Assembly: GCA_023142805.1 (NCBI GenBank)
Contig: JAGLIU010000017.1
Location: 1-43,653 of the forward strand
Direction: 5' to 3'
Origin: Candidatus Omnitrophota bacterium
GTDB lineage: Bacteria > Omnitrophota > Gorgyraeia > Tantalellales > Tantalellaceae
Length of the DNA stretch: 43,653 bases
Part shown: piece by piece, positions 1,959-42,920 of the stretch
Layout: every line of letters starts with the position of its first letter
Numbering within the stretch: position 1 is the stretch's first letter
Made by a program: the position numbers and the translations under genes
The notes under the pieces: generated by a model
What the model was told of the DNA's origin: nothing
The model's input: the letters and a program-made list of their open reading frames with translations, nothing else
The model's database searches: none

Positions 1959-4715
1959 ATGTCAATTGATTTCGATTTAATAAACCAAAATGCGTTAGTT
2001 GGTCTTGCCTCCCTTGTGTGTGTGTGGTTGCCAGGGGGACACCTAAAAGGCAGAGAATATGTGGCCAAAAACCCAAATAGACCAGACGATAGTGTAGGTT
2101 CTCTGAGTATTAATGTTGACACCTGTTTATGGTCCGATTTCGCAGTACCTGGAATTGGCGGTAATGACCCGGTGTCATTATATGCGTTTGTGTTCAATCT
2201 CAAACAAGGCGAAGCTGCCAAGAAATTGCAGGGAGAATTAAATATTGTTCCCCTTAAATCAATTGAGGCACCCAAACAACAGACGAACCCATGGATACCA
2301 ATAGTTCCAGTCCTTCCATCGGCACCACCACCACCAAAGGAATATTGTAGGAAAAACGGAAAAAATAATGGCCTTAAAAAATATCCTATAATAGAATACT
2401 ACAAATACAAAACTAAAAAAGGCGACCTGGCAGGGTACACGTTTCGGATTAAAAACGAGCACGGAAAAAAAGAGGTGCTCCCCTTGACATATTGTAAGAG
2501 CGGCACAAAATTGAGCTGGAGGTTTAAATCTTGGTCTACACCAAGGCCAATATACAAACTTGACAGATTGGTAGCCAACAAAACCGCCCAGGTTCTGGTG
2601 GTCGAAGGTGAGAAATGCGCTGATGCGGCAACAATGCTATTTGAAAACCATAGTAACATTGTGCCCATAGCATGGATAGGTGGAGGCAAAGGTGTTAATA
2701 ATATAAAGTGGCTTCCTCTAAAAAACAGAAAAGTTATTTTCTGGCCCGATGCGGATTCGCAGAAATATGAGAATTCCCACAAAAACGCAGGTGAAGAAAG
2801 GGCTTTTGTGGATCAGCCCGGACCTATGGCAATGATAAAGATTTACAATATGGTAGTTCGAGGTGTAAAGGGGGCGCGAATTATTGTCCCTCCTCCTCCA
2901 TACCGTGATGGGTGGGATATTGCTGACGCTATAGAAAGTGGGTGGGACGCTGAAAAAGTGCTTGACTTTATAAAAAACAATATTGTTGATTTTGACAGCC
3001 TTTCCCAGAAGCCGAGAAAGATTGCGGTTAACTCAGTACAACAACCGTTTAAATGCCTTGGATATAATTCAAATGCAAAAACTATTGTATACTACTACCT
3101 CCCAGCGGGGACGCTTAAAGTGATAGAACTCACGGCAAATGGTCACGGCAAAATGAATTTGCTTTCACTCGCTCCTATCACATATTTTGAACGAGAATAC
3201 CCCGCCAAAAACGGCGCTGATTACATGGCGGCCGCTGATGACATGATTAGACACAGCGAAAAGTCAGGACTCTATGACCCGCTTAGGTGTAGGGGGCGTG
3301 GCGCTTGGTTTGACAAGGGGAGAACTGTTTTGCATATAGGAAACAAGCTAATAGTTGACGGCAGGGAATGCCAGATTGAAGATTTTGATTCTTATTACAT
3401 ATATGAGGCTGAAATTCCTACAGAAAATATGGATTATTTTATTAGGGAGCCGCTTAAAGTGTCGGAGTCGCAAAAACTTATAGAGATTACTGACATGTTT
3501 TCCTGGGAAAAAAGCATTAGCTCCAAACTGTTTGCTGGTTGGCTTGTTCTTGCTCCAATTTGTGGCGCTGTAGACTGGAGGCCTCACATATGGCTTACCG
3601 GCGAATCTGGTACTGGCAAGACCTGGATTCAAGAAAGAGTTATACCGCCAATTCTTGGCAAGGCCGTGCTAAATGTTTCGTCAAACAGTACTGAAGCTGG
3701 CATTAGAATGTCATTGACAAACGACGCTTTTCCGGTAACGTTCGATGAAGCCGAGGCCGAAACGAAAAGGGCGTCAATCCGCATTCAAGAAATTGTGGAG
3801 CTTGCAAGAAAATCATCAAGTAATGGAATGGCTTCCATTGTCAAGGGCTCGGCGAGTGGGCAAGCAATTGCGTATGTTATTAGGTCATGTTTTTTGTTTG
3901 CTTCCGTAAATCCATCAATTGATCAGCAGGCAGATGTGAGTAGGATAACACTACTAAAGCTTGTTAAGCGCGGCGACTATGAAGATGGCAGCAAGTTTGA
4001 TGATCTCAAAAACGAGGTTTCAGAAGTGTTGACAGACAAGTTTTGCGCTCAATTACGTGCGAGATCAATAACGCTCATCCCAACAATAAGAAAAAATGCC
4101 GAAATATTTTCAACGGCAATGTCAAGAATTTTTAAGAGCAAACGCACCGGGGACCAGATGGGTACGCTACTCGCTGGCGCTTTTTCTCTTAGGTCCGATA
4201 AGGTAATAGGTTTGGGTGCCGCATTAAAATGGGCTGAGTCAGTGAATTGGGACGATGGCACTGTATCAGACAATGCGCCAGATCAAAACCGGTGTATGGA
4301 GGCGATATTGCAACAGGTCGTGTCTATAGATTCGGGTGGGAAAACTGAGGCTGTAGGTTCTCTCATTCGCAAAGCCGGGCGGCCACGGCAGGCCACGGCT
4401 GACGTTGCAAATGATAACGAGATAGAAAACATTCGCATAGCAGCACGGGAGGTACTGCGAAAACATGGAATAACTACTGTGTTGCCATGTGGTAGCCAGT
4501 CGTACTATGTGGCTTTTGCGTGTAGCCATGCACTACTCAAGCGGTTGCTAAGTGAAACGCCTTGGGGAACGGGGTACAGGCACATACTCATGAGGCATGA
4601 CGGAGCAGAAGTCAAGAACGCTGTGTTCGCAGATAAGCGCAGATCGGCAGCAATATTAATACCGTATTGGATTATTTTTCCGGAGGATTTTGAAGATGAA
4701 CAAAGCAGATTTTAA
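1959..4715 (+). CDS. bifunctional DNA primase / helicase (TOPRIM N-half, P-loop NTPase C-half; P4 alpha / DUF927-like architecture)
   Basis: 918 aa. TOPRIM-like motifs VLVVEGEKCADAA and VIFWPDADS. Walker A LTGESGTGKTW and Walker B-like VTFDEAEA. Confidence 0.9.
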   Translation: MSIDFDLINQNALVGLASLVCVWLPGGHLKGREYVAKNPNRPDDSVGSLSINVDTCLWSDFAVPGIGGNDPVSLYAFVFNLKQGEAAKKLQGELNIVPLKSIEAPKQQTNPWIPIVPVLPSAPPPPKEYCRKNGKNNGLKKYPIIEYYKYKTKKGDLAGYTFRIKNEHGKKEVLPLTYCKSGTKLSWRFKSWSTPRPIYKLDRLVANKTAQVLVVEGEKCADAATMLFENHSNIVPIAWIGGGKGVNNIKWLPLKNRKVIFWPDADSQKYENSHKNAGEERAFVDQPGPMAMIKIYNMVVRGVKGARIIVPPPPYRDGWDIADAIESGWDAEKVLDFIKNNIVDFDSLSQKPRKIAVNSVQQPFKCLGYNSNAKTIVYYYLPAGTLKVIELTANGHGKMNLLSLAPITYFEREYPAKNGADYMAAADDMIRHSEKSGLYDPLRCRGRGAWFDKGRTVLHIGNKLIVDGRECQIEDFDSYYIYEAEIPTENMDYFIREPLKVSESQKLIEITDMFSWEKSISSKLFAGWLVLAPICGAVDWRPHIWLTGESGTGKTWIQERVIPPILGKAVLNVSSNSTEAGIRMSLTNDAFPVTFDEAEAETKRASIRIQEIVELARKSSSNGMASIVKGSASGQAIAYVIRSCFLFASVNPSIDQQADVSRITLLKLVKRGDYEDGSKFDDLKNEVSEVLTDKFCAQLRARSITLIPTIRKNAEIFSTAMSRIFKSKRTGDQMGTLLAGAFSLRSDKVIGLGAALKWAESVNWDDGTVSDNAPDQNRCMEAILQQVVSIDSGGKTEAVGSLIRKAGRPRQATADVANDNEIENIRIAAREVLRKHGITTVLPCGSQSYYVAFACSHALLKRLLSETPWGTGYRHILMRHDGAEVKNAVFADKRRSAAILIPYWIIFPEDFEDEQSRF

Positions 4716-5199
4716 ACTAAGTGCGCTTGATATTGAATTAGCGGTGGTTGAATTTTTTAACCCAAGACAAAATCTAATTGTTCCAAATGTGTGGTGGTCG
4801 TATTTTAAACACGAGTGCGATTTGCTTGTGTTGACAAAATCAAACTATGCCTATGAGATTGAAATCAAGACTACTCTCTCAGATTTGAAAAAAGATTTAT
4901 TAAAAAAACACGGGCATTACGATCACAAAATTAAAAGATTGTATTTTGCGATTCCCGAAAGCTTGGAAAAACACATTGTGCATATCCCAGAAAGGGCGGG
5001 GGTGCTGGCCGTAAAGCCAAGGCAAGGCAGGACGTTTTCTGGTGAAAAAATTATCTATACCCACCTGAGTGTTTTAAGAAAAGCCAAAGACACATCGAAA
5101 TATAAATTCTCAAATGAAGATAGATATAATTTAGCCAGACTTGGCACAATGCGAGTTTGGAAGCTGAAACAAAAGTTACAAGGAGGCAAAAATGTGTGA
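4696..5199 (+). CDS. MmcB-like / PD-(D/E)XK nuclease family protein
   Basis: Core motif ECDLLVL..YEIEIKTTLSDLKKD, then LYFAIPE..GVLAV, as in the MmcB (DUF1052) family. ATG 4696 follows GGAGG 4682-4686. TTG 4690 is the ORF-track start. Confidence 0.7.
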   Translation: MNKADFKLSALDIELAVVEFFNPRQNLIVPNVWWSYFKHECDLLVLTKSNYAYEIEIKTTLSDLKKDLLKKHGHYDHKIKRLYFAIPESLEKHIVHIPERAGVLAVKPRQGRTFSGEKIIYTHLSVLRKAKDTSKYKFSNEDRYNLARLGTMRVWKLKQKLQGGKNV

Positions 5200-5731
5200 A
5201 ATAAGCGTAGAGGTTCTAAGCGAAAACGGATACCACCAAGCCATGTTGGGATTGTCCCTAAACAAAGATCAGCCCGTAGAAAAAATGGGAGATGTTGCAA
5301 ACAAATTGTGTGATAAAGACGGCGGCCACAATAAATTTATGGAACAAATAATTGTATGGCTAATGGTTCGCGCACCGCGCTACTGGTGGCAAGAAGCGGA
5401 TACTTACAGAATGTCAAGCAAGAGTAGCCAGTCAACTATGCACACCATTCTGAGCAACAGGTTGGCCCCACAAAATTTTGAATTGGACAGTGTGACACAT
5501 GAAACCCTTGATTTTTGCAATTATTTTATACGCAACAATAAATTGTTTGAGCTTAAGCGAGTGCTTCCAGAGGGTTTCATGCAAAAAAGAATGTGGATGC
5601 TTTCGTACAAAGCCATTAGGAATATTGTTTTGCAAAGAAAAAACCACAGATTACCACATTGGACAAAACTTATATCAGTGCTTCGCAACAATTTGAAGCA
5701 TCCAGAACTTTTACCATTTGACAAGGAGTGA
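5192..5731 (+). CDS. ThyX-like (flavin-dependent thymidylate synthase fold) protein with degenerate signature motif
   Basis: HNKFMEQIIVWLMVRAPRYWWQEADTYRMSSKSSQSTMH aligns by eye to the ThyX segment HETPFEHI..V(K/R)AP.FV.RQ..RHR......S.R. VLPEGFMQKRMWMLSYKAIRNIVLQR aligns to ThyX VLP...YT...W..N.R.L.NF..LR. The RHR motif is replaced by TYR. GGAGG RBS. Confidence 0.6.
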   Translation: MCEISVEVLSENGYHQAMLGLSLNKDQPVEKMGDVANKLCDKDGGHNKFMEQIIVWLMVRAPRYWWQEADTYRMSSKSSQSTMHTILSNRLAPQNFELDSVTHETLDFCNYFIRNNKLFELKRVLPEGFMQKRMWMLSYKAIRNIVLQRKNHRLPHWTKLISVLRNNLKHPELLPFDKE

Positions 5732-8317: not shown

Positions 8318-8700
8318 ACTCTCATTACAACATTCGGTCCCAAACATTGATAAAAGCAAACAAAATCCCAGGTGTAAAGCTGTGGCCTAATCCCGTAGGG
8401 CTTGGGTATGCCGGTAGTGTAGCACATGAGTACAATGAGGGGGGGAATCATTTTGTGGTGCTAAAAAACCCTCGTAGAGTCCGGTATGGATTCGCTCCAG
8501 GCTCCAGTGATTGCATAGGATTTAGGCGCGAGTCTCATAATGGTGCGGTTATGCCACGTTTTGTGGCAATTGAAATCAAGGCCGGCAAGGACGTTCTCAG
8601 GCCGGCGCAAGGAAACTTCCTCAAAATGGTGAAAAATCACGGCGGAATCGCCGAAATAGTCAGAAATCCAGATGAGGTTATGGATATATTGCAGCGCTAA
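8311..8700 (+). CDS. VRR-NUC domain nuclease
   Basis: PGSSDCIGF..FVAIEIKAGKD.LRPAQ..F...V...GG is a D..ExK core followed by the typical VRR-NUC tail. ATG 8311 overlaps the ASCH stop (ATGGTAA). The 8245 start would overlap by 73 nt. Confidence 0.8.
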   Translation: MVNSHYNIRSQTLIKANKIPGVKLWPNPVGLGYAGSVAHEYNEGGNHFVVLKNPRRVRYGFAPGSSDCIGFRRESHNGAVMPRFVAIEIKAGKDVLRPAQGNFLKMVKNHGGIAEIVRNPDEVMDILQR

Positions 8701-8727
8701 CATATATAATGTAATAGGTAAAACAGC

Positions 8728-8793
8728 ATAAAATGCAAAAAAAATAATAAAATGCAAAAAAAACTTGACTTTCCCTCAGAAATGAGGTATTAT
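8728..8793 (+). promoter_or_regulatory. sigma70-like promoter with duplicated A-tract upstream element
   Basis: TTGACT (8765-8770), 17 nt spacer, TATTAT (8788-8793). Directly upstream are two copies of ATAAAATGCAAAAAAAA (8728-8744 and 8747-8763). Confidence 0.6.
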
Positions 8794-8835
8794 TATAGTA
8801 GAGGAAAAAACAAAACCCAAACCCAGGAGGATGAG

Positions 8836-9243
8836 ATGAATACCAAAACCCAAAGCAAAGTGATTGGCCTTATTAGTCTCAACAACATAACTGATCCTAC
8901 CAGCTCAAAAATTGAGGCTGTCGCAGATAGTTTTCCAGGAGAATATAGCAACGAGGATGAATATGTTGATTTTCAGATGGATATAGGACAGCTTGTCGAA
9001 GAAATGCAGGCGGCCAAAACAAAATACAGTTTTTCGGAAAATGGCTACGGCACCACAATCACAACGGGAAACTATGAGTTTTTTTATCCGGGAATTACTA
9101 TAGACGATATGATGCATTGGTCCCCAGCCAATTTTTCAGGAGTTTCGTCGGTCTCAGATGGAGGAGTATATTTTACATTGGATCAGGCTCCAGAAAATCA
9201 AGATTATTTTTTCTGTGCCTTGGAAGAGGCTCGTAATAATTAA
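8836..9243 (+). CDS. strongly acidic early protein (135 aa)
   Basis: ATG 8836 follows AGGAGG and lies downstream of the promoter. The 8752 start would place the promoter inside the gene. By my count there are about 20 D/E versus about 6 K/R. Confidence 0.65.
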   Translation: MNTKTQSKVIGLISLNNITDPTSSKIEAVADSFPGEYSNEDEYVDFQMDIGQLVEEMQAAKTKYSFSENGYGTTITTGNYEFFYPGITIDDMMHWSPANFSGVSSVSDGGVYFTLDQAPENQDYFFCALEEARNN

Positions 9244-15656: not shown

Positions 15657-16220
15657 TTAATCTACGATGTAGGTTATTGTTTGCCGAAAAAAAACTTTTG
15701 CCCTAATAGCAGAACCTCCCACCCCAAAATTAAACGCGCTTAATTCGCCACTGCTATCTGTTATTCTCGCCTGCCAAGTATCAGCCGCCCCGGTTTGTAT
15801 CCACAAAACACCCATCCTCTCCTCGGCCGTTCCAGCGTCTTGTTTTGACAGTGCAACAGGCACCCCCTTCGGGAGCGTTGGCAGAATGAGTGTAGGCCAT
15901 GTGGTATTTGGAGTAACAACAAGCTCTGTATTAGTGGCATGGTACCCCCGGAGTTCTTCTGTCGTGATGTGGACAACATTTCCTATTTTGGTATATGTCC
16001 AATTGACATTAACAGGCGTGGTGAAATAGGTACTCGTAACATCCACATTAATAGTGCCAGTCAAGTAATCATCTACAGAATCAGTAATTGATATTTTAGG
16101 ACATGAACCATCTGCATCAAGCCCTTGGTGGTTGTGTCCATTACTCGCATTGGTTCCCCAATACAAATCCAGGAAATCTGGGGTCATGTGGTCGCCATTA
16201 GACCAGTCTCTTTTAGCCAT
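15657..16220 (-). CDS. tail fibre-associated / receptor-binding-like protein (187 aa)
   Basis: GGAG RBS. Last gene of the late operon. The NGHNHQGLDADGS motif is similar to HxH motifs of fibre tips and to TGGHRHF in the large fibre. Confidence 0.5.
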   Translation of the reverse strand: MAKRDWSNGDHMTPDFLDLYWGTNASNGHNHQGLDADGSCPKISITDSVDDYLTGTINVDVTSTYFTTPVNVNWTYTKIGNVVHITTEELRGYHATNTELVVTPNTTWPTLILPTLPKGVPVALSKQDAGTAEERMGVLWIQTGAADTWQARITDSSGELSAFNFGVGGSAIRAKVFFRQTITYIVD

Positions 16221-17288: not shown

Positions 17289-20200
17289 TTAACCATTCAG
17301 AAGGGTGTAGCTGTAAGTTACGGTCCCACCTATTCTGTTTTTTAAATATATTTTACCATCTGTGTGAACATTTACATTAAATTGCGCGTCAGTCCCATCT
17401 CCCGCTCCATCTGTTAGAGCACCAGTCGAAGCGGTAAACACGGTTGCCGTGTCAAGCTCTTCTGTGCACGCTGCGGTTTCAGCATCATATCCAAATATCC
17501 CAAACCGCAAATTGTTACCAGCATCCTCAAAGGATACGACAATTACACCGCGAGGATTGTTTGGGGTAAAACTAAATACTACATCATCCGCAAGACTCGT
17601 TCCCTCCTTGCTTAGATACGAACAAGTATTACTCCTAACAGTTGTGCCTTGTAGACTGCTAACGAAATCAAAATAATTTGTGTTTCCATTTAGAGTAAAT
17701 TGCATATTTGAAACACTGCCACCACTCAAAGCCTGTAAGCCAATGGCTCCATTTGGTGCCTCATCACCGATTTCTTTTGCATCTGCCCAAATCCTTGCGT
17801 ACAGGGTGTCACTAGAGGAAGAGTCATCAGCATAGCAACTAATATACATTATATCATCATCATTTGCTTGCGAACCGCCTCTATTGTTTCTAAATATTAA
17901 TTCTGATGCATCAGGTCCGTCTGTTTGTTGGTCAAGAACGAAATCACCGCCAACAGTTAGATAGGCCCTTACGCTAGTTCCGCCTGGCGCAAACTGTATA
18001 GGAGCGTCTGATTTTGTTGACACAATCAACAATGCCGCTGCGGTGTTACCAGAATATAGCGCTACTTTATCAGCCCACCATGCAGAACTATGTGTTGAAC
18101 TAACAGCATACAGCCCACCAAAACAAGAGTCAGAAGCACATTCAAACCCTGAAAGCGCAGCGGTTCCACCTGTCAAGTTTTGTGCCCTTATTAATGTGGA
18201 GGCATTTTGGTTCTCTCCAACATCAATGAGATTTGAGCCTATTGACATACCCACACTAAGCTGGTTGTATATTGTCATGTCGCCTTGGTATGTGTTGATT
18301 CCGGTAAGTGCCTTAATTTCTGTTTTGCCAGATGTCATTATACCACTTCCGCCCTGATACCTCGAAGTCGCTACGAATATTCCGTTGCCGTAACAGACGG
18401 AATACCATCCCAGGTCAGCCGCCGAGGTCCTTGATGTCCAGATCTTACCATCCGGCGAAGTCATGACTCTGTTACCCGTACCAGTATTTGAAACCGCCAC
18501 GAATATTCCGTTGCCATAAGTCACAGAAAACCAATCCAGGTCAGCCGCTGAGGTCCTTGATGTCCAGGTCTCACCATCCGGCGAAGTCATGACTCTGTTA
18601 CCCGTACCAGAAATTGAAACCGCCACGAATATTCCGTTGCCATAAGTCACAGAATTCCAGTCCAGGTCAGCCGCCGAGGTCCTTGATGTCCAGGTCTCAC
18701 CATCCGGCGAAGTCATGACTCTGTTACCCGTACCAGTATTTGAAACCGCCACGAATATTCCGTTGCCATAAGTCACAGAAAACCAATCCAGGTCAGCCGC
18801 TGAGGTCCTTGATGTCCAGATCTTACCATCCGGCGAAGTCATGACTCTGTTACCCGTACCAGTACTTGAAACCGCAACAAAAAGCCCATTGCCGTAAGTT
18901 ACAGATCTCCAACTTAGGTCAGCCGCTGAGGTCCTTGATGTCCAGATCTTACCATCCGGCGAAGTCATGACTCTGTTACCCGTACCAGTATTTGAAACCG
19001 CCACGAATATTCCGTTGCCGTAACAGACGGAATACCATCCCAGGTCAGCCGCTGAGGTCCTTGATGTCCAGGTCTTACCATCCGGCGAAGTCATGACTCT
19101 GTTACCCGTACCAGATTTTGAAACCGCAACAAAAAGCCCATTGCCGTAAGTCACAGAAAACCAATCCAGGTCAATGGCGGAAGTCTCACTTTCCCATTTC
19201 GTGCCTGCGGAAATAATGTCGCCAATAACTTCTAGTGTATTCGCCATTACATTAACTGTTTTTGTTGCACCAACAGTAATGCTCATTGTGTCAATGCTAT
19301 GATCGTACAACAGCATTGCAACGTCCGCATCCTCTGGATCAGACCAAGCCACACCAGTTGTTGCGGTATTAGGGTTTAGGAAGTTTATATAATTATCGTT
19401 TGCGTCATCTTCAAGTAAAAATTGAGCTGTTGATATTTTTGTAGCTCCAGAACTTGCAACAAAAGAATGAAATCTGACTTGTGGACTATCGGTCCCAACA
19501 CCAACATTGCCACCATTAAAATAAGTGTCTCCAGCAGAATTTAATTTTATCTTTGTAGTGGCACTCGAATTAGATATTGTAACATAACCGTTGTTTAAGG
19601 CGTCTGCTTTTAGCCCTATCACGCCAGCACTACCAGACGAAACACAATTTAAAAATTCTTTTGTGCTTGAGGCGCCCGTTGTTGCATCAAGACGTATCAA
19701 CGCCCTTCCTATAGTTATTGGGTCTCCAGATATGTGCACCAATGTAAGCGGAGATTCCACCCCAACACCAACATTGCCACCATTAAAATACGAATTTCCA
19801 TTGGAGTGCAAAACCGTAGTAATATCGTTGCTTGCGTCACGCAGTTGAATATTGCCATGGTTAGAAGCGTCAGCCGCTAATCTAATGCTACTCGTGGCAA
19901 TAGATGATGTGCACAACAAAAATGCTTTGTCGCCAACGGCAGACGTAAGGAAGATGTTTGCTGCTTGTTGCGCCCCATAAACCGTCAATGGTGATCCCGG
20001 ATAATTCGAAGAACCAATTGACACATTGTCAGGAAGATATATAACGCCTTTGTTGGCATGGGACGTGCTTTCTATTGTTATGTCATCACCGTCATCTGCC
20101 CCCCCATACAAAACCTGTCCGCCAGATCTGCCAGCAAGCAAGGCGTATATTGAATGATCATCATCAGCCAGACCAACAAGATCGCCATGTTCGGCAGCCG

Positions 20201-20498
20201 CAAGCCCATCATCAACATATTTTTTGTTTGCGACCTGGTAATCAGCGGTAGGCGCAGCGGATGGAGTAAGAGGAAAGTTTACAAACGTGCCTACAGCCGA
20301 ACTATTGACATTAAGCGCAATCGTTCCAGATGTCTCGCTATATAGTTTGAAATGCCTATGCCCACCAGTGTATTTGGTTTCATCCACACAATCCTCTACC
20401 AATGTGTCTATTATATCCTTAAAAAGTTGTTCCTCAGTAACTCCCCATGGTGGCGGATCACCGGCCGTATTATGTGTAAAATTTTTATATGTTGCCAT
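17289..20498 (-). CDS. large tail fibre / receptor-binding protein containing a seven-repeat Asp-box-like beta-propeller
   Basis: 1069 aa. Two GGNVGVG(V/T)(E/D)SP motifs common in fibre shafts. Seven 42-aa repeats of the form W.S..SA.DL.W.SV.YGNG.FVAVS..GTGNRVMTSPDG... Confidence 0.85.
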   Translation of the reverse strand: MATYKNFTHNTAGDPPPWGVTEEQLFKDIIDTLVEDCVDETKYTGGHRHFKLYSETSGTIALNVNSSAVGTFVNFPLTPSAAPTADYQVANKKYVDDGLAAAEHGDLVGLADDDHSIYALLAGRSGGQVLYGGADDGDDITIESTSHANKGVIYLPDNVSIGSSNYPGSPLTVYGAQQAANIFLTSAVGDKAFLLCTSSIATSSIRLAADASNHGNIQLRDASNDITTVLHSNGNSYFNGGNVGVGVESPLTLVHISGDPITIGRALIRLDATTGASSTKEFLNCVSSGSAGVIGLKADALNNGYVTISNSSATTKIKLNSAGDTYFNGGNVGVGTDSPQVRFHSFVASSGATKISTAQFLLEDDANDNYINFLNPNTATTGVAWSDPEDADVAMLLYDHSIDTMSITVGATKTVNVMANTLEVIGDIISAGTKWESETSAIDLDWFSVTYGNGLFVAVSKSGTGNRVMTSPDGKTWTSRTSAADLGWYSVCYGNGIFVAVSNTGTGNRVMTSPDGKIWTSRTSAADLSWRSVTYGNGLFVAVSSTGTGNRVMTSPDGKIWTSRTSAADLDWFSVTYGNGIFVAVSNTGTGNRVMTSPDGETWTSRTSAADLDWNSVTYGNGIFVAVSISGTGNRVMTSPDGETWTSRTSAADLDWFSVTYGNGIFVAVSNTGTGNRVMTSPDGKIWTSRTSAADLGWYSVCYGNGIFVATSRYQGGSGIMTSGKTEIKALTGINTYQGDMTIYNQLSVGMSIGSNLIDVGENQNASTLIRAQNLTGGTAALSGFECASDSCFGGLYAVSSTHSSAWWADKVALYSGNTAAALLIVSTKSDAPIQFAPGGTSVRAYLTVGGDFVLDQQTDGPDASELIFRNNRGGSQANDDDIMYISCYADDSSSSDTLYARIWADAKEIGDEAPNGAIGLQALSGGSVSNMQFTLNGNTNYFDFVSSLQGTTVRSNTCSYLSKEGTSLADDVVFSFTPNNPRGVIVVSFEDAGNNLRFGIFGYDAETAACTEELDTATVFTASTGALTDGAGDGTDAQFNVNVHTDGKIYLKNRIGGTVTYSYTLLNG
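18315..19196 (-). repeat. 7 x 126-nt in-frame tandem repeat array inside the fibre gene
   Basis: CCATCCGGCGAAGTCATGACTCTGTTACCCGTACCAG recurs every 126 nt (about 18448, 18574, 18700, 18826, 18952, 19078). Two units share about 118 identical nt by eye. Confidence 0.9.
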
Positions 20499-36950: not shown

Positions 36951-38175
36951 CCTTTACGTCAACCACATCTTTGTCGGTCAAGTTATACTTTTTTTTGAAA
37001 TAATCCCTTGTGAATTGTACCCCGCTTTCTCTAAAGCAGGCTATTAAATTTACGTCGCGCGTCGATCTCTCGATGTCAACCTTCTCTTCTGCAAACAGCT
37101 TAAACCGTGGATGTGGAGTCAGGCCAAAATTAATCTCGTGTACCATTTTAATAAGTTCGTCAAATGCGCCCATAACAATACGGGCGTCCGATTCAATAAT
37201 ATCTTCCCTTACTTCCATATGGGATTTTGAAGCCGCGTATGATCCGCCTTGAACTTCAGTGGTGAGGTTTGTGCCTAATATAGCCATTGCAATTTCTGTA
37301 TTCATCACATCGATGTATATTTTGTGAAGCGGGTTATCGGTTGAGCCCACTCCCTTTGATTCTAAAATTTCTACTTCGTACGCGGAGGGAACAACTGCAA
37401 TGGCATCCTGGACCATGTAGTCCAACATATCCGCGACTTCCTGCATTGCCTCGGCTCTTGTTCCGTCTGGCGCCTTCCCCAACAGAAACGGGGAGCCATA
37501 TTTTTCTAAAAATATAGAGAAAAGCTTTAGGCCATTTTTCCGAAACGTAACCGGCCAATAACACGGGCTTAGAATCGCTTGACCAAATGGGTTGTCGTAT
37601 GTGGGGTTGTGCCGCGCAACTATGAATTTGTAGGGAGGAACCTCTATCCCTTTACCCATATCGGTCATAGTCAGAAACCTTAATTCGTTTTGCTCTCCAT
37701 ATGTAAACCAGCGTGACGGCTTGCCCACAAACTCTACAGGCACCATTTTGTTTTCCACTACTTCCCATACAATTTCAATCGGCTTATATCCATACAAAGC
37801 AGCATCCAGTATCTCCACCATTATATTTTCTAATTTGTAATTGCCAAAATACGACTTATGAAAATCAACTTGCTCTTGTGGTGTGTCCTCTCCTACAATC
37901 TCCCACTCCATGGATTGAACCGCTGATTTCCTGGACTGAATACACGCACTTACTCTTGAGTCGTATGTCAACGATTCAAATACTTCTATGGTAGTGCCAA
38001 GTCCATCAAGCACAGGATCAGGATTGGGAAGCGTTCCCATAAGCAAGCTCATAAAATCAATGGATGCTTCACGGGTTGCTATCTGTTTTGTGAGGCTTTT
38101 TTTTGTAGCTGGTGTTCCCATTTGTTTTAGTGACTCATTGGCTAAATCCACGAACGAAGTGGTAATGTTTTTCAT
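36901..38175 (-). CDS. portal protein (Mu gp29 / DUF935 family)
   Basis: 424 aa. ATGA overlap with the terL stop. The N-terminal ..LLMGTLPNPDPVL....FESLTYDSRVSACIQSRKSAV.S.EWEI matches the DUF935 pattern. Confidence 0.85.
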   Translation of the reverse strand: MKNITTSFVDLANESLKQMGTPATKKSLTKQIATREASIDFMSLLMGTLPNPDPVLDGLGTTIEVFESLTYDSRVSACIQSRKSAVQSMEWEIVGEDTPQEQVDFHKSYFGNYKLENIMVEILDAALYGYKPIEIVWEVVENKMVPVEFVGKPSRWFTYGEQNELRFLTMTDMGKGIEVPPYKFIVARHNPTYDNPFGQAILSPCYWPVTFRKNGLKLFSIFLEKYGSPFLLGKAPDGTRAEAMQEVADMLDYMVQDAIAVVPSAYEVEILESKGVGSTDNPLHKIYIDVMNTEIAMAILGTNLTTEVQGGSYAASKSHMEVREDIIESDARIVMGAFDELIKMVHEINFGLTPHPRFKLFAEEKVDIERSTRDVNLIACFRESGVQFTRDYFKKKYNLTDKDVVDVKVGDATKKDGEDDARSN

Positions 38176-39503
38176 TTTATATATCCCCTTAAATAATTTG
38201 GTGTCTTTTTCCCTTTGCGCGTCACAGCCTTAGCCTTTGGTACTGGGTTGCCCTTGACATATATAAATAATTGTGACGCGGCGTCAACTATGTCATCCAT
38301 AGTGTCAAGCCTGGCATTAAAATCGCATAGCTGGTCCTTAGCCACACCATTCCATGCGCCGAAAAGTAAATGAACTTTCTTAGCCTCAAAATACGGAGTA
38401 ACAGAAACCGCGCGGCTAAACTTGTCACCTGTTGGGGTAATAGCTCGTACTGGATATGGAAATTGATCTCTAAATGTCTGAAATAATGATGTGCCACTAG
38501 CCTTGTCTTCGATGAGAAACATGTCTGGATTATGTTTTAAATAAAACTCCTCTGCTTTTTTAATTAGCTCTGGAAATTCCAATTTCTCACAGAACGTATC
38601 TATCCAGAAATAATCATTTGCCGTTTCTATAACACACACGCCCGCGCTATCATCGTTTTCACATCCCTTTTTAAATGCTGTGTCTAATGATATTATCATT
38701 CTTTTCCACAAATGTTTAGGTGGCAATTCGTAAACTATATCAAACCAGTGTTCGTGGAATACTTCCTCATCCCCTACGTCAATAAATTCTCCGTGGATCT
38801 CTTGGCGCCTGGTTATGCGAGGCACTTCTTCCTCAAGTTCTTTTATGTCGTTTTCGTCAAGCAGTGGGTTGTCATATGATGAGAACGTCCTTGTTGCCCA
38901 ATCCGGTTGTTTATCTTCATCTGATTCAAGCCCGCCTTTTTTTGCGAGTTCGTAGTATAATGTGGTTTTGTGGGGGGACTCGTCTTTCTTGGCTCGTTTT
39001 CCCTTGGGTGTGCCAAGGAAATAAACGTCTGCCCTAAAGTCAAGCGTCATGGGGAATATAGAGTTTAGCCATAAGCTGCGCCCTTTTTGGCCCTTGAGCA
39101 CTATACCGGCCTCGTTAATCATAATTTTGTGATACCCAAACCCCTCAATGTTTTCGGGCTTCTCCGCGCTTCTAAAATCCATGACACCATGTAATATGTT
39201 GAGATCTTTTTGTTGTGTGCGATATCTCCAGAACTTGGGATCTATTCGTTTTAGGATGGGGAAAAAGTATTTTTTAAAATATTTGTCAAGATTTACTTGC
39301 ACTGTGTCAACCCACAGTATGTATTTTCCCTCTAACAGCATATCTATACAGAAAGCGGCGGCGGAGGATGTGATGCCATACCGCCGCCCCTTTGGTACTA
39401 CGAGGAACCGTTCGGGAATATCGTAGTACAGTTCTAGTTGTGGTTCTGTAAAGGGGAGAACTATTTCTCCCCCGTCAATTGTAATATCACAATGATATGA
39501 CAC
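38172..39503 (-). CDS. terL: terminase large subunit
   Basis: 443 aa. N-terminal ATPase (VVPKGRRYGITS Walker A-like, ..IMINEAG Walker B-like). C-terminal nuclease region with ISLDTAF..DDSAGV and FLIEDKASG motifs. GTG start. Confidence 0.85.
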   Translation of the reverse strand: MSYHCDITIDGGEIVLPFTEPQLELYYDIPERFLVVPKGRRYGITSSAAAFCIDMLLEGKYILWVDTVQVNLDKYFKKYFFPILKRIDPKFWRYRTQQKDLNILHGVMDFRSAEKPENIEGFGYHKIMINEAGIVLKGQKGRSLWLNSIFPMTLDFRADVYFLGTPKGKRAKKDESPHKTTLYYELAKKGGLESDEDKQPDWATRTFSSYDNPLLDENDIKELEEEVPRITRRQEIHGEFIDVGDEEVFHEHWFDIVYELPPKHLWKRMIISLDTAFKKGCENDDSAGVCVIETANDYFWIDTFCEKLEFPELIKKAEEFYLKHNPDMFLIEDKASGTSLFQTFRDQFPYPVRAITPTGDKFSRAVSVTPYFEAKKVHLLFGAWNGVAKDQLCDFNARLDTMDDIVDAASQLFIYVKGNPVPKAKAVTRKGKKTPNYLRGYIK

Positions 39504-39713: not shown

Positions 39714-40298
39714 TCATTGTAAAAAATTGTCCATGTCTTCGGACATAACCATTTCCTGTTTTTCATCGGTCTCAGGCTCCTCAGTGGGAGTGGGCTCAAC
39801 CACCCTGCACACAACATTCTTAATTTCTTTCGCGGCTTCTATGGTAAGCTGCGGAGTTTTTCCGTATGCCGCATTAAGTTCTTCGCGGGTTCTGATGATT
39901 CTTCTCTGGATATGCACCTGGAGATCGCCAGAGACTTTTGTGGTGACGTCCAGGCTTCCACCTATATTATTCCTGCGCTCTGATCTCTGGATATGTCGCT
40001 CCACTATCTCAGCATATAATTTCTGGGCTTGGATGTTTCCCGCTTTTGCATTTCGGGATATGGCGTCTATTACGGCCGGTGAGTGTATTTTCTGGCGCTC
40101 AAGGAGAAATTCCCAGTCCAGGTGTTTGAAATGCCTATCAACAGTGTTGACGGATACTCCTGCGCGTTTTGCGATGCTTTTATACGACGGAATGATGTTG
40201 CCATTTTCTTTTGTAATTTCGAGATATGCATTATAAATTTTCTGATGGTTCGCTTCGTAGTTTTTATAGGGTGCCGCACCAGGTTTTCTTTTTGCCAT
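39714..40298 (-). CDS. terS: terminase small subunit (HTH-containing)
   Basis: First gene of the late operon, directly upstream of terL. PSYKSIAKRAGVSVNTVDRHF is a clear HTH. Confidence 0.7.
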   Translation of the reverse strand: MAKRKPGAAPYKNYEANHQKIYNAYLEITKENGNIIPSYKSIAKRAGVSVNTVDRHFKHLDWEFLLERQKIHSPAVIDAISRNAKAGNIQAQKLYAEIVERHIQRSERRNNIGGSLDVTTKVSGDLQVHIQRRIIRTREELNAAYGKTPQLTIEAAKEIKNVVCRVVEPTPTEEPETDEKQEMVMSEDMDNFLQ

Positions 40299-40363: not shown

Positions 40364-40455
40364 AATAATCGTGGTTATGGGTGTTGGGGGGCAGTGGTAT
40401 TGGGTAATCCCTCTACTATTGACATTAAGTCATTGACATAGCTCAAATCCAAAAA

Positions 40456-40485
40456 TTGACAAAACACGGGTGTTCACTCTACATT
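40456..40485 (+). promoter_or_regulatory. rightward sigma70-like promoter with palindromic operator in the spacer
   Basis: TTGACA (40456-40461), 18 nt spacer, TACATT (40480-40485). The spacer holds AACAC-GG-GTGTT (40463-40474). Confidence 0.45.
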
Positions 40486-40514
40486 TTGGCCTAAGACATT
40501 GGTTTACAAGGCCC

Positions 40515-40584
40515 TAATAATAATAATAATAATAATAATAGAATATTTATATATATATATATATCGTGATAGTATCTATCTATC
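40515..40584. repeat. compound microsatellite: (TAA)8, (TA)8, (TATC)3
   Basis: (TAA)8 at 40515-40540, (TA)8 at 40548-40564, (TATC)3 at 40573-40584. Confidence 0.9.
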
Positions 40585-40820
40585 GATATACACATGGGTG
40601 TGTAAATTATTGTATATGTATCTATGTTTCGCGAAAAACCCATCCCTCTACTATTTTCGAGATGTAAACAGTGTAATGCCAACATGTTAAGCTTAATAGT
40701 AGAGTTTTAGCTGAAGTTATTTCGGAATAACCCGCCTAAATTGTGTAAATTATATTATGTAATGGCAATGAGTTAGTTACCAAAGTAGAATGTACCACTC
40801 GAAAAAAGGAGAAAAAGGTA

Positions 40821-41198
40821 ATGGAAAAAAGGCTGTGTACCGCGTGTTTAGGGCTTAAGGGGTTAGATGAGTACTACAAAAAGAGCAATGGGAAACCGTA
40901 TGGGCACTGCAAAAAGTGCTATTCCTTCATCAGATCGGTGGAGTTTCTTGATTTTGAGCAGGGAATTTCCAAGTGTTTTAGGGAAAAAACTCAGTGTTTT
41001 GAAGAAAAAACTGTGTGTTGTGGAGGTAAAAACACTAGTTATTGCCGAAAAACTGTGTGTTGTGGAGGTAAAAACACTAGTTATTGTGCTAAAAAGAAGC
41101 GTTTTGTGGCCGAAAGGGTGTTGAGAAAGAGCCGAAAAAGGCGAAAAACGTATGTAAAACACGTAGTTTTAGGGAAAAAAAGTATGTTTTTACCTTAA
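40821..41198 (+). CDS. dubious ORF: plausible N-terminal CxxC..CxxC zinc ribbon, with the remainder running through a repeat mosaic
   Basis: AAGGAG RBS. The N-terminus MEKRLCTACLGLKGLDEYYKKSNGKPYGHCKKCY looks like a real zinc ribbon. From about codon 50 the sequence is DNA repeats, and three frames are open across them. Confidence 0.35.
   Translation: MEKRLCTACLGLKGLDEYYKKSNGKPYGHCKKCYSFIRSVEFLDFEQGISKCFREKTQCFEEKTVCCGGKNTSYCRKTVCCGGKNTSYCAKKKRFVAERVLRKSRKRRKTYVKHVVLGKKSMFLP
41004..41086 (+). repeat. tandem duplication, 42-nt period
   Basis: GAAAAA(A)CTGTGTGTTGTGGAGGTAAAAACACTAGTTATTG x2. A degenerate third copy, AAAAACTATGTGTTGTAGA, lies at 41292-41310. Confidence 0.9.
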
Positions 41199-41212
41199 AA
41201 CACATGAAAAAA

Positions 41213-41259
41213 CCAAGTGTTTTGTAAATAAAAGTATGTTTTTTCTTCAAAACACTTGG
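41213..41259. repeat. perfect 12-bp inverted repeat (stem-loop)
   Basis: CCAAGTGTTTTG (41213-41224), 23 nt loop, CAAAACACTTGG (41248-41259). Confidence 0.85.
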
Positions 41260-41364
41260 AAAAACTCAGTGTTTTGGGTAGGAAATGATATAAAAACTAT
41301 GTGTTGTAGACCACAACTATGAAAAAATGGTAGTCGTCCCCTGAAAAAATAAATAAAATAAAAC

Positions 41365-41393
41365 TTGCATTACTGGGAAAAATTAGGTATACT
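41365..41393 (+). promoter_or_regulatory. sigma70-like promoter of the accessory gene cluster
   Basis: TTGCAT (41365-41370), 17 nt spacer, TATACT (41388-41393). An A/T-rich GAAAAAATAAATAAAATAAAA element lies upstream. Confidence 0.6.
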
Positions 41394-41430
41394 ATTAACA
41401 TATTAACATATTAACATCGGAAATGTTAAC
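41394..41430 (+). promoter_or_regulatory. operator-like repeats at the transcription start: (ATTAACAT)x3 plus an inverted copy
   Basis: ATTAACAT at 41394, 41402 and 41410. TTAACAT-cggaa-ATGTTAA palindrome at 41411-41429. Confidence 0.6.
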
Positions 41431-41456
41431 ACCAACAGAAGGGATTTCAGGGCATA

Positions 41457-41666
41457 ATGAGTAAAATAGAGAATGGGGTATTCAAAATTGAGGCCGAAAA
41501 ACCGCAGCAATGTGATAGTTGTGGAAAAATTGCGGAATTGAGGCCGTATGGACCTGGTGGTAGTTGTATTTGTTTTGTCTGCGGCATGAAAGATGAGCCG
41601 GGGGCGCTTTCGAGGTTTGTTGCGTTGTTGGATGACGTAGAAGGGGTAGATTATGGAAATGAATGA
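41457..41666 (+). CDS. zinc-ribbon protein (69 aa)
   Basis: CDSC..CFVC pairs. First ORF after the promoter/operator. Confidence 0.6.
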   Translation: MSKIENGVFKIEAEKPQQCDSCGKIAELRPYGPGGSCICFVCGMKDEPGALSRFVALLDDVEGVDYGNE

Positions 41667-41728
41667 AAATATTACCACTGTTGTATTTTGTGGCCATATT
41701 ACTGTATTTAGCGTGGCTAACCAAGTAG
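41663..41728 (+). CDS. possible 21-aa hydrophobic peptide
   Basis: ATGA overlap with the previous stop. Sequence MKILPLLYFVAILLYLAWLTK. Confidence 0.3.
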   Translation: MKILPLLYFVAILLYLAWLTK

Positions 41729-41740
41729 GGGGTATATATA

Positions 41741-41908
41741 ATGTATAGTAAAATACCTATAGATATGGTTCGGCCCTTGCCTAGAAAAATAAATAAAATA
41801 ACAATTATTGTTAAGAAAATTGCTGTTGAACAATATTGGGGAGGGGCCTTGAAAGCATTGTTTTTAGTGATAGCGATGATTATGATTATGATTATATTGG
41901 AGGCATAA
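41741..41908 (+). CDS. possible small membrane protein (55 aa)
   Basis: GGGGG RBS. C-terminal TM segment ALKALFLVIAMIMIMIIL. Below the ORF-track cutoff. Confidence 0.4.
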   Translation: MYSKIPIDMVRPLPRKINKITIIVKKIAVEQYWGGALKALFLVIAMIMIMIILEA

Positions 41909-42450: not shown

Positions 42451-42666
42451 ATGAAAAAAAATCCGATATATGAACTATCGTTACGAACCAGGCTTGAAAG
42501 CAAGCCACCGGTTTTAGTGATGAAACAATCTCTTGACACTATCGAACTATACAAGGGGTTACTGGCAGAACATTTTTATGTGTTGGCTCGTTTGCAAGAA
42601 ATGAATAATGATCACAAAGAAGCGAAAGCAAGTTTTGCTCGGGCTGTTGGGATTAAGAGGTTTTAA
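42451..42666 (+). CDS. hypothetical protein (71 aa, helical)
   Basis: GGAGG RBS. Starts 1 nt after the previous stop. Confidence 0.55.
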   Translation: MKKNPIYELSLRTRLESKPPVLVMKQSLDTIELYKGLLAEHFYVLARLQEMNNDHKEAKASFARAVGIKRF

Positions 42667-42920
42667 TGGCTATGGAAATAGGTATAGGAATGTTGGGTGG
42701 GCAGGTTTTAAAAATGGCTAATGACATGTATAAAGCCAAGTGTTTTACATTTAAGAATTGTGTGGCAACATTCGAAAAACTACCCGAAATTACAGTTGTG
42801 AATGCGGAGGATTACCCAGGTAGTTTTGTGGTTAGGCTACACCACAATTTTTGGGGAGAGACATATATATTACGCTATAGCAAAACACTCATTGAACTAT
42901 ATGTTGAGAGGACCGCTTGA
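42666..42920 (+). CDS. hypothetical protein (84 aa)
   Basis: TAATG overlap with the previous gene. Confidence 0.55.
   Translation: MAMEIGIGMLGGQVLKMANDMYKAKCFTFKNCVATFEKLPEITVVNAEDYPGSFVVRLHHNFWGETYILRYSKTLIELYVERTA

Follow-up and report, generated by a model that had tools for sequence, protein, structure and literature searches.

A helically phased repeat array at the start of the early gene arm of an uncultivated phage, and its tentative reading as a replication origin or origin accessory

The window analysed here, a stretch of 43,653 nucleotides (nt) corresponding to contig JAGLIU010000017.1, represents an entire phage genome closed into a circle (43.65 kb, 41% GC), and the element in question is a repeat block at positions 40962-41320, which begins inside a small early gene (gene 1, 40821-41198) and continues past its stop codon. 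At the DNA level, this block comprises about 16 copies of a GTGTTTT core, usually with AAAAAC before it, which form an array in both orientations on a 21-bp lattice, and it is more ordered than the initial annotation described. The conserved core on a two-turn lattice in both orientations, together with the copies lying outside the open reading frame (ORF), the phase that is coherent across the two arms and the native centre, and the weak-duplex flanks, argue for a constraint at the DNA level, most simply a protein reading GTGTTTT on one face of a curved helix. From there, the reading tentatively favoured is that of a lineage-specific, helically phased protein-binding array acting as a replication origin or origin accessory, which we hold to be possible, short of probable.

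Anatomy of the repeat block

GTGTTTT or its complement AAAACAC occurs 21 times in the window, against 12.1 +/- 3.4 times in shuffled sequence, and nine of these 21 copies are found within 40973-41275, where some 0.08 would be expected per 300 bp; the nine positions first reported for this 7-mer are exact. The palindromes AAAAC-N5-GTTTT are equally real, being perfect at 40986, 41156, 41209 and 41261 and carrying one mismatch at 41007, 41049, 41091, 41176 and 41293, and with up to one mismatch allowed the block holds nine of the 15 matches of the window. All the longer recurring modules listed by the initial annotation were also recovered from the sequence, namely AAAAACTCAGTGTTTTG at 40985 and 41260, CCAAGTGTTTT at 40969 and 41213 and inverted at 41249 (with a fourth, previously unreported copy at 42736) and, by direct reading, GTTTTAGGGAAAAAA at 40975 and 41166 as well as GCCGAAA three times. 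The basic unit underlying this mosaic is 21 nt long, AAAAAC-nnn-GTGTTTT, with the consensus GAAAAAAC-nnn-GTGTTTTG-nn, and it is deployed along the block as follows.

40962-41108, plus strand: left arm, seven head-to-tail 21-nt units with an exact period of 21, in frame inside gene 1
41006-41086, plus strand: exact 42-nt tandem duplication, 1.9 copies, 100% matches
41109-41150, plus strand: dyad centre (midpoint about 41110-41125), native codons of a conserved basic helix, with GCCGAAA/GCGAAAA copies
41151-41320, plus strand: right arm, last codons of gene 1 and enlarged spacer
41178-41276, plus strand: 52-nt tandem, 85% matches, with ATGTTTT-N6-AAAACAC-N13-GTGTTTT twice
41207-41259, minus strand: hairpin with perfect 12-bp arms CCAAGTGTTTTG / CAAAACACTTGG, -16.4 kcal/mol, z -3.1, followed by UUUUUUCAUGUGUUUU
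41292-41308, plus strand: final unit of the right arm

Beyond the left arm, further copies of the unit start at 41208, 41260 and 41292, and each copy of the 42-nt duplication contains a convergent GTGTTGT-N7-AAAACAC pair. The seven 21-nt units of the left arm thus provide the repeats expected of an iteron origin, namely three or more related copies, each 17-22 bp long and set roughly two turns of the helix from the next. Regarding their conservation, the core positions carry 1.2-1.6 bits of information and the spacers 0.1-0.5 bits; the two copies of the 52-nt tandem differ at 11 positions, none of which falls within the 20 core positions defined from the left arm (p=0.002, in a test that was partly post hoc). 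The iteron-like interpretation originally put forward therefore stands as far as the repeats themselves are concerned, as they are real, highly non-random and confined to the block, with a 21-bp period, both orientations, conserved cores, variable spacers and AT-rich flanks.

Outside the block, a weight matrix derived from its copies was not enriched, with 3 sites of at least 14 bits elsewhere in the window against 1.2 +/- 1.2 in shuffles. An outlying copy, TAAAGCCAAGTGTTTTA, on the plus strand at 42731-42747 inside ORF 42666-42920, may be a chance match and, because of this lack of enrichment, neither it nor the copy at 42882 is counted as a part of the system. Besides, three GTGTTTT/AAAACAC 7-mers are clustered within 170 bp at 4905-5075, just 3' of the primase-helicase gene and inside the MmcB-like ORF 4690-5199 (chance p of about 0.01, a post-hoc estimate); this trio is reminiscent of a second cis site, of the kind that ori and crr of P4 form with shared iterons, to which the full 17-nt matrix gives no support.

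Dyad symmetry, helical phasing and predicted curvature

Taken as a whole, the block is a large imperfect inverted repeat centred at about 41110-41125, with 54-nt arms matching at 72% and 19-nt arms, 226 nt apart, matching at 100%, so that one strand folds into a single long hairpin; the RNA fold of 40955-41325 reaches -96.3 kcal/mol (z -5.5). Over 40981-41295, that is 315 bp or 30 helical turns, A/T tracts recur at 10.6 bp, and the corresponding spectral peak stands at z=14 relative to the genome, the next best region being at z=2. Since the units on their 21-bp, two-turn lattice phase the A/T tracts at 10.6 bp, the block should be intrinsically curved. A wedge model, of which only the curvature ranking is to be trusted, predicts it to be the most curved DNA of the genome, segment 41086-41295 having an end-to-end/contour ratio of 0.12 (z -9.3). 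The second most curved spot in the same ranking lies at 8559-8873, with A-tracts just upstream of a strong promoter, TTGACT-17-TATTAT; there, segment 8697-8800, between a VRR-NUC gene and ORF 8752-9243, is also among the least stable of the genome and carries 9-nt GCAAAAAAT repeats.

The flanks of the block are characterized by weak duplexes. Segment 41317-41427, which adjoins its right end, is among the ten least stable of the genome (z 2.7), and segment 40514-40616, in the divergent control region to the left, is the least stable of all and constitutes a candidate unwinding element 350-450 bp away from the block. Both segments also carry promoter features, and their elements are as follows.

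40514-40616: (TAA)8.7 + (AT)11 tract of the divergent control region, the least stable duplex of the genome (z 5.2 and 4.5)
41338-41431, plus strand: AT-rich flank of low stability, with an A-rich upstream stretch, promoter P2 and operator-like repeats
41365-41393, plus strand: sigma-70-like promoter P2 as read from the sequence, TTGCAT (41365-41370), 17-nt spacer, TATACT (41388-41393)
41393-41417: three tandem TATTAACA (period 8, 3.1 copies), directly after the -10 box of P2
41424-41431: inverted TGTTAACA

The (TAA)n/(AT)n tract is found at the same position in the control regions of four related loci (L007, L008, L009 and L010), beside two TAAGTYRTTGAT elements, and it may be the true unwinding element of the group or else a promoter feature. 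As for the right flank, the TATTAACA triplet and the inverted TGTTAACA have the appearance of a distinct set of operators; L010 shows a comparable triplet of GTACATAA in the spacer that follows its own gene 1 (5580-5652). Just upstream of P2, a 27-nt A-rich repeat, CCTGAAAAAATAAATAAAATAAAACTT, occupies 41340-41366 and recurs 440 bp further at 41780-41806 with 85% identity, and may be a recurring promoter-upstream element.

Gene 1 and its in-frame insertion

The block was initially thought to be repeat DNA rather than a gene, a view that has to be abandoned, as ORF 40821-41198 (plus strand) belongs to a conserved family of 79-90 amino acids (aa) that occupies the same position in relatives. Its 125-aa product comprises an N-terminal CxxC...CxxC zinc ribbon, a linker and a C-terminal basic helix; the gene itself opens the early series next to the divergent control region. 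An initial word-index protein search with this product matched only the product itself, which was a false negative; the homologues were reached through synteny and then by a profile search, which retrieved 9 family members among 5.8e9 proteins, that of the window alone being long. Homologues of 79-90 aa stand at the same position in the related loci L006, L007, L008, L009, L010 and L042. Shared by gene 1 and these homologues are the zinc ribbon, the motif FLDYEQG and the C-terminal basic helix IAeRiLrrRRVKKVLRG; in the alignment, the codons of the dyad centre match IAeRiLrrRR, and the last residues of gene 1, VKHVVLG, align to VKKVLRG. The former claim of three open reading frames across the block held for 40960-41120 only (frames +0 and +2 and one minus-strand frame) and failed for the remainder.

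Compared with all homologues, gene 1 carries an in-frame insertion of 35 aa, K56-A90, encoded by 40986-41090, i.e. 105 nt or five 21-nt units, as well as an insertion of 6 aa. In the AlphaFold2 model, the ribbon has a predicted local distance difference test (pLDDT) score of about 90 and helix 90-117 one of about 85, while residues 54-86 remain below 50, so the insertion is predicted to be a disordered linker and, as such, should be tolerated. A fold search with this model returned generic zinc-ribbon similarities alone, with E > 1. When the DNA sequences are compared, unit 2 matches the ancestral linker codons found in the homologues, CCAGAAAAACAGAAAATTGC, suggesting that the 21-nt unit originated from native sequence and multiplied in situ. 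The left arm can accordingly be described as an in-frame coding variable-number tandem repeat (VNTR), given its 21-nt unit, its real ORF and its absence from orthologues, the right arm being non-coding. The latter fills the spacer after gene 1, which measures 258 nt here versus 64-93 nt in relatives.

Genome setting and comparison with relatives

In the genome, the two transcriptional arms diverge from a 520-bp control region and, because the early genes begin at 40821, the block is found where the early arm opens, immediately to the right of that region. The main landmarks are the following.

About 15.7-40.3 kb, minus strand: late genes, including a Mu-type portal
38172-39503, among the late minus-strand genes: large terminase
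39714-40298, late minus-strand arm: helix-turn-helix (HTH) protein of 194 aa, at the position expected for the small terminase subunit (terS)
40821 round the junction to 15641, plus strand: early and replication genes
1959-4715, plus strand: primase-helicase, 918 aa
6467-7897, plus strand: DEAD/ResIII helicase

Regarding the assembly, ENA scaffold_209 (sample ERZ23498480) is identical in sequence to the window, and a contig of a separate assembly (Logan) crosses the junction 43653 -> 1 without interruption. The Logan assembly matches 41057-41320, the right 264 bp of the block, at every base, and its contig ends within the 42-nt duplication at 41006-41086; since it breaks there, the copy number of the 42-nt unit is the sole uncertain detail of the block. 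Elsewhere in the genome, a 126-nt tandem repeat (6.4 copies, 89% identity, 18369-19173) lies within a late ORF of 1069 aa (17289-20498, minus strand). By coordinate arithmetic, the ends of the ENA contig overlap at 18461-18767, inside this repeat, which indicates that the assembly was closed through it and that its copy number may be uncertain. The primase-helicase is identical to a protein filed by NCBI under a Candidatus Omnitrophica metagenome-assembled genome (MAG), in which the phage contig was binned, and this binning is at best a hint to the host; its closest homologues in cultured phages are those of Bordetella phages PBb001 and PY223, at about 36% identity.

Related contigs were reached through homologues of the primase-helicase, and six syntenic loci were compared. 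Each contig shows the large terminase, the HTH protein, a control region of 470-570 bp and then the 79-90-aa gene that aligns to gene 1. As to the homologues by which the nature of the block was to be judged, they do exist and are conserved as proteins, but all of them are without the repeats, and for that reason synonymous drift through the repeats cannot be scored. Beyond these loci, no DNA match for 40400-41800 was found in GenBank phages, terminase and primase queries against IMG/VR gave nothing useful, the exact 17-mer and a two-unit pattern returned single chance matches only, and a pattern scan of 185,579 genomes yielded only chance or unrelated matches, among which coding repeats of Micromonospora were set aside as unrelated. 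A Chroococcales MAG (L012, JBBSCU010000168.1) displays at 1015-1160 seven tandem 21-nt units, AAAAACTTAGTGTTCAT(C/G)AA(T/C)A, with half-sites nearly those of the phage unit; this array is chromosomal, between a small ORF and an acetolactate-synthase-like gene, is without replication context and is probably an unrelated tandem repeat of cyanobacteria.

A candidate replication origin

Under the favoured reading, the block would serve a phage DNA-binding protein as a platform for landing and wrapping, with a replication origin, or its initiator-loading part, as its most probable role. By occupying one face of the curved arms, this protein would put strain on flanking weak duplex, for which 41338-41431 (right) and 40514-40616 (left) are the candidates and where the 918-aa primase-helicase would be loaded, and early transcription would cross the array, as it does at the lambda ori. 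Regarding its history, the left arm would have grown in place through duplication of linker codons in gene 1, in frame and in steps of 21 nt, and the right arm through inverted copying into the downstream spacer. Such a role is in line with the position of the block, which opens the early replication arm of a phage encoding both a primase-helicase and a DEAD-type helicase, and with the unusually unstable duplex on both of its flanks. It is also in line with the family scans, which identified no replication initiator besides these two, many early ORFs being unmatched. The assignment as a primase with a superfamily 3 (SF3)-type helicase rests on PHROGs and, for the homologues, on Pfam matches to zf-CHC2, Toprim, DUF6371 and D5_N, and the C-terminal 159 aa of the protein give a confident model (pLDDT 84). 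It had been called P4-alpha-like, which is an architectural analogy and no established membership, as P4 is not in the 25 best of the 51 matching phage records (tblastn) and the C-terminal domain has no detectable fold match among solved structures; a sequence search of the PDB also found no match.

Several observations weigh against an origin. In the comparison with relatives, none of the six syntenic loci shows a repeat block, a cluster of the motif or phased A-tracts, either at the site or up to 10 kb from the primase gene, so the origin claim of the initial annotation finds no comparative support, and since the position of an essential origin should be conserved, the absence from relatives counts against it. 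Some 400 bp separate the block from the strongest candidate for an unwinding element, which is part of the conserved control region, the dyad centre is the most stable duplex of the block (dG -71.8 at 41100) and GC-richer than the arms, and the exactness of the 42-nt duplication and of the 17-19-nt modules could be explained by recent slippage. Unlike the origins of Staphylococcus aureus pathogenicity islands (SaPIs) and other phage-inducible chromosomal islands (PICIs), the block precedes the primase-helicase gene by 4.6 kb, and its centre is stable and GC-richer. On the side of the proteins, no PDB fold, of winged-helix type or other, matches the C-terminal domain of the primase-helicase at E <= 1e-3, and family scans, in which many early ORFs were unmatched, recognised no Rep, O-type or winged-helix initiator and none with a matching DNA-binding domain; the 194-aa HTH protein shows weak, HTH-level matches to initiator PHROGs (E 1e-3 to 6e-6). 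Nor is there any enrichment of DnaA boxes. Lastly, the cumulative skews, proposed as a check on the origin, reach their minima at 40023 (GC) and 40420 (AT), left of the block, and their maxima at 15683 and 15641, all of these extremes sitting at switches of gene orientation; as they track gene orientation, the skew is uninformative about the block.

A bolder version of the same idea, which we regard as unlikely, is that the birth of a cis-acting array is being observed. In that case, a curved iteron platform, be it a new or accessory origin or a site at which the gene 1 protein binds its own gene, would have been made de novo in one phage lineage, the amplification of linker codons and their mirror copying downstream having turned a coding segment into a nucleoprotein scaffold.

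Alternative explanations

The alternative that best survives, in our view a possible one albeit doubtful, is a functionless and recent local expansion, in which 21-nt slippage in the linker codons and hairpin-mediated template switching would have produced a VNTR-like mosaic tolerated in frame. The uniqueness of the block among the 9 family members and the 6 syntenic loci speaks for such an accident, as do the exact 42-nt duplication and 17-19-nt modules, the alignment of unit 2 with the ancestral codons, the location of the insertion in a predicted disordered segment and the assembler break at the 42-nt duplication. Against it, older copies are down to 62-85% identity with the core still intact, the mismatches between the 52-nt copies avoid the cores, and the 10.6-bp phase runs coherently through both arms as well as the native centre, a regularity that random duplication has no obvious way of preserving. 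Moreover, useless palindromic DNA of 300 bp, being unstable, is rarely retained in phage genomes.

Rather unlikely, next, is a transcriptional or architectural element, the block serving as an upstream enhancer or regulator-binding array for P2 or as an autoregulatory roadblock within gene 1. The right end of the block precedes by 45-400 bp a good sigma-70-like promoter with an A-rich upstream stretch of its own, and the 15-bp palindromes of the block, with conserved arms and variable centres, resemble the operators of dimeric proteins. Besides, curved upstream DNA seems to be a feature of the promoters of this phage, insofar as the second curved spot of the genome (8559-8873) likewise precedes a strong promoter. 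Against this, the 350 bp concerned far exceed the known length of upstream activating curvature, P2 already has a separate operator-like set in the TATTAACA triplet and its inverted copy, the 64-93 nt between gene 1 and gene 2 suffice in relatives, and no predicted promoter overlaps the cores.

A role at the RNA level appears quite improbable. The early transcript could form a long, imperfect hairpin involved in processing or stability, with a near-perfect closing stem of about 25 bp (40966-40990 with 41238-41262), or else 41213-41259 could terminate an antisense RNA. The strong fold of 40955-41325 is consistent with the former; regarding the latter, the minus-strand hairpin 41207-41259 with its U6 run resembles a leftward intrinsic terminator, and a leftward promoter-like site at 41429-41400 could yield an antisense RNA of about 185 nt. 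Nevertheless, the fold is an automatic consequence of the DNA inverted repeat, the 5' arm is translated within gene 1, hence ribosomes would melt the stem, no Rfam family matches the block and, the block being absent from relatives, no covariation evidence is possible.

Still less credit is given to a packaging site (pac or cosB-like) bound by the 194-aa HTH protein. This protein is encoded directly upstream of the large terminase in every relative, in keeping with terS, and bent, repeat-rich DNA near terS is typical of pac sites, e.g. pacL of SPP1. The block, on the other hand, starts 660 bp from the start of terS, past the control region and within a gene of divergent orientation, relatives with the same packaging genes lack it, and better pac candidates exist among the conserved control-region elements.

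Least credible of all, selection at the protein level would account for six cysteine heptads (SKCFREK TQCFEEK TVCCGGK NTSYCRK TVCCGGK NTSYCAK) added to a zinc-ribbon protein, in which 21 nt make 7 codons, the frame is kept and a metal-binding protein gains eight extra cysteines, but the same units continue past the stop codon and in inverted form, where they encode different peptides, the segment is predicted to be disordered and no homologue has the insertion.

Significance

If functional, the array would mark a replication or control centre in an uncultivated phage group with Mu-like head genes and a large primase-helicase, and it would indicate that coding sequence can give rise to iteron-type sites, which differ from one close relative to the next in the way the number of iterons does in lambdoid phages. 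If it is mere repeat expansion, it brings a word of caution, namely that iteron-like geometry alone does not identify an origin. In practical terms, this compact 360-bp fragment is usable for binding and curvature assays.

Comparison with known systems

Among the known kinds of repeat arrays, two were discarded. A partition centromere of the parC or tubC type would fit the presence of an array, but family scans found no partition ATPase or GTPase and no integrase among the early genes, where an adaptor and motor pair such as ParR/ParM, TubR/TubZ or ParA/ParB would have to adjoin the array. As for a clustered regularly interspaced short palindromic repeats (CRISPR) array or a mimic of its repeats, the period is 21 nt, below the 23 nt that such repeats measure at least, there are no unique spacers, Rfam gave no match and the pattern scan was negative. 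With the bend of kinetoplast minicircles and with curved promoter-upstream DNA, the block shares A/T tracts every 10.5-10.6 bp over many turns and an extreme predicted curvature; unlike simple A-tract DNA, its tracts belong to a recurring motif of 7-17 nt that has inverted copies, and half of it is coding.

The iteron origins of theta plasmids (P1 incC/incA, F, R6K, pSC101) are built on a 21-22-bp two-turn lattice with a conserved core and variable spacers, and their arrays can flank a coding segment on both sides. The block resembles them in its two-turn lattice, conserved core, variable spacers and arrays flanking a coding segment, and departs from them in that the core is 7 nt only, no gene for a Rep or winged-helix initiator was found in the family scans and DnaA boxes are not enriched. 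With SaPI/PICI elements and P4, whose origins are served by primase-helicases that load themselves, it has in common a large primase with an SF3-type helicase encoded by the same genome and short iterons in both orientations on two sides. In SaPI/PICI elements, the origin lies directly downstream of rep and consists of short iterons in opposite orientations flanking an AT-rich centre (PMC9371898). The block departs from this layout, not being just downstream of rep and its centre not being AT-rich.

The nearest known kind would be, by analogy, the in-gene iteron array of lambdoid phages, where gene O has the ori in its middle part and the iterons possess an intrinsic bend; in Shiga toxin (Stx) phages, two extra iterons compared with lambda add 13 residues to O (PMC7466680). 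The present block differs from this model in that the gene hosting it encodes no recognisable initiator, its zinc ribbon and basic helix being without family annotation, in its about 16 cores in both orientations with a global dyad symmetry instead of 4-6 direct iterons, in that half of the array is outside the gene, in its extreme predicted curvature and in its restriction to a single lineage. While the number of iterons differs between related lambdoid phages and alters the length of the protein, the relatives here are without the array altogether. Like the lambdoid ori, nonetheless, the block has repeats with internal dyad symmetry, predicted to be bent and set in frame within the linker of a small early gene, with an adjoining AT-rich segment and with early transcription running through the array.

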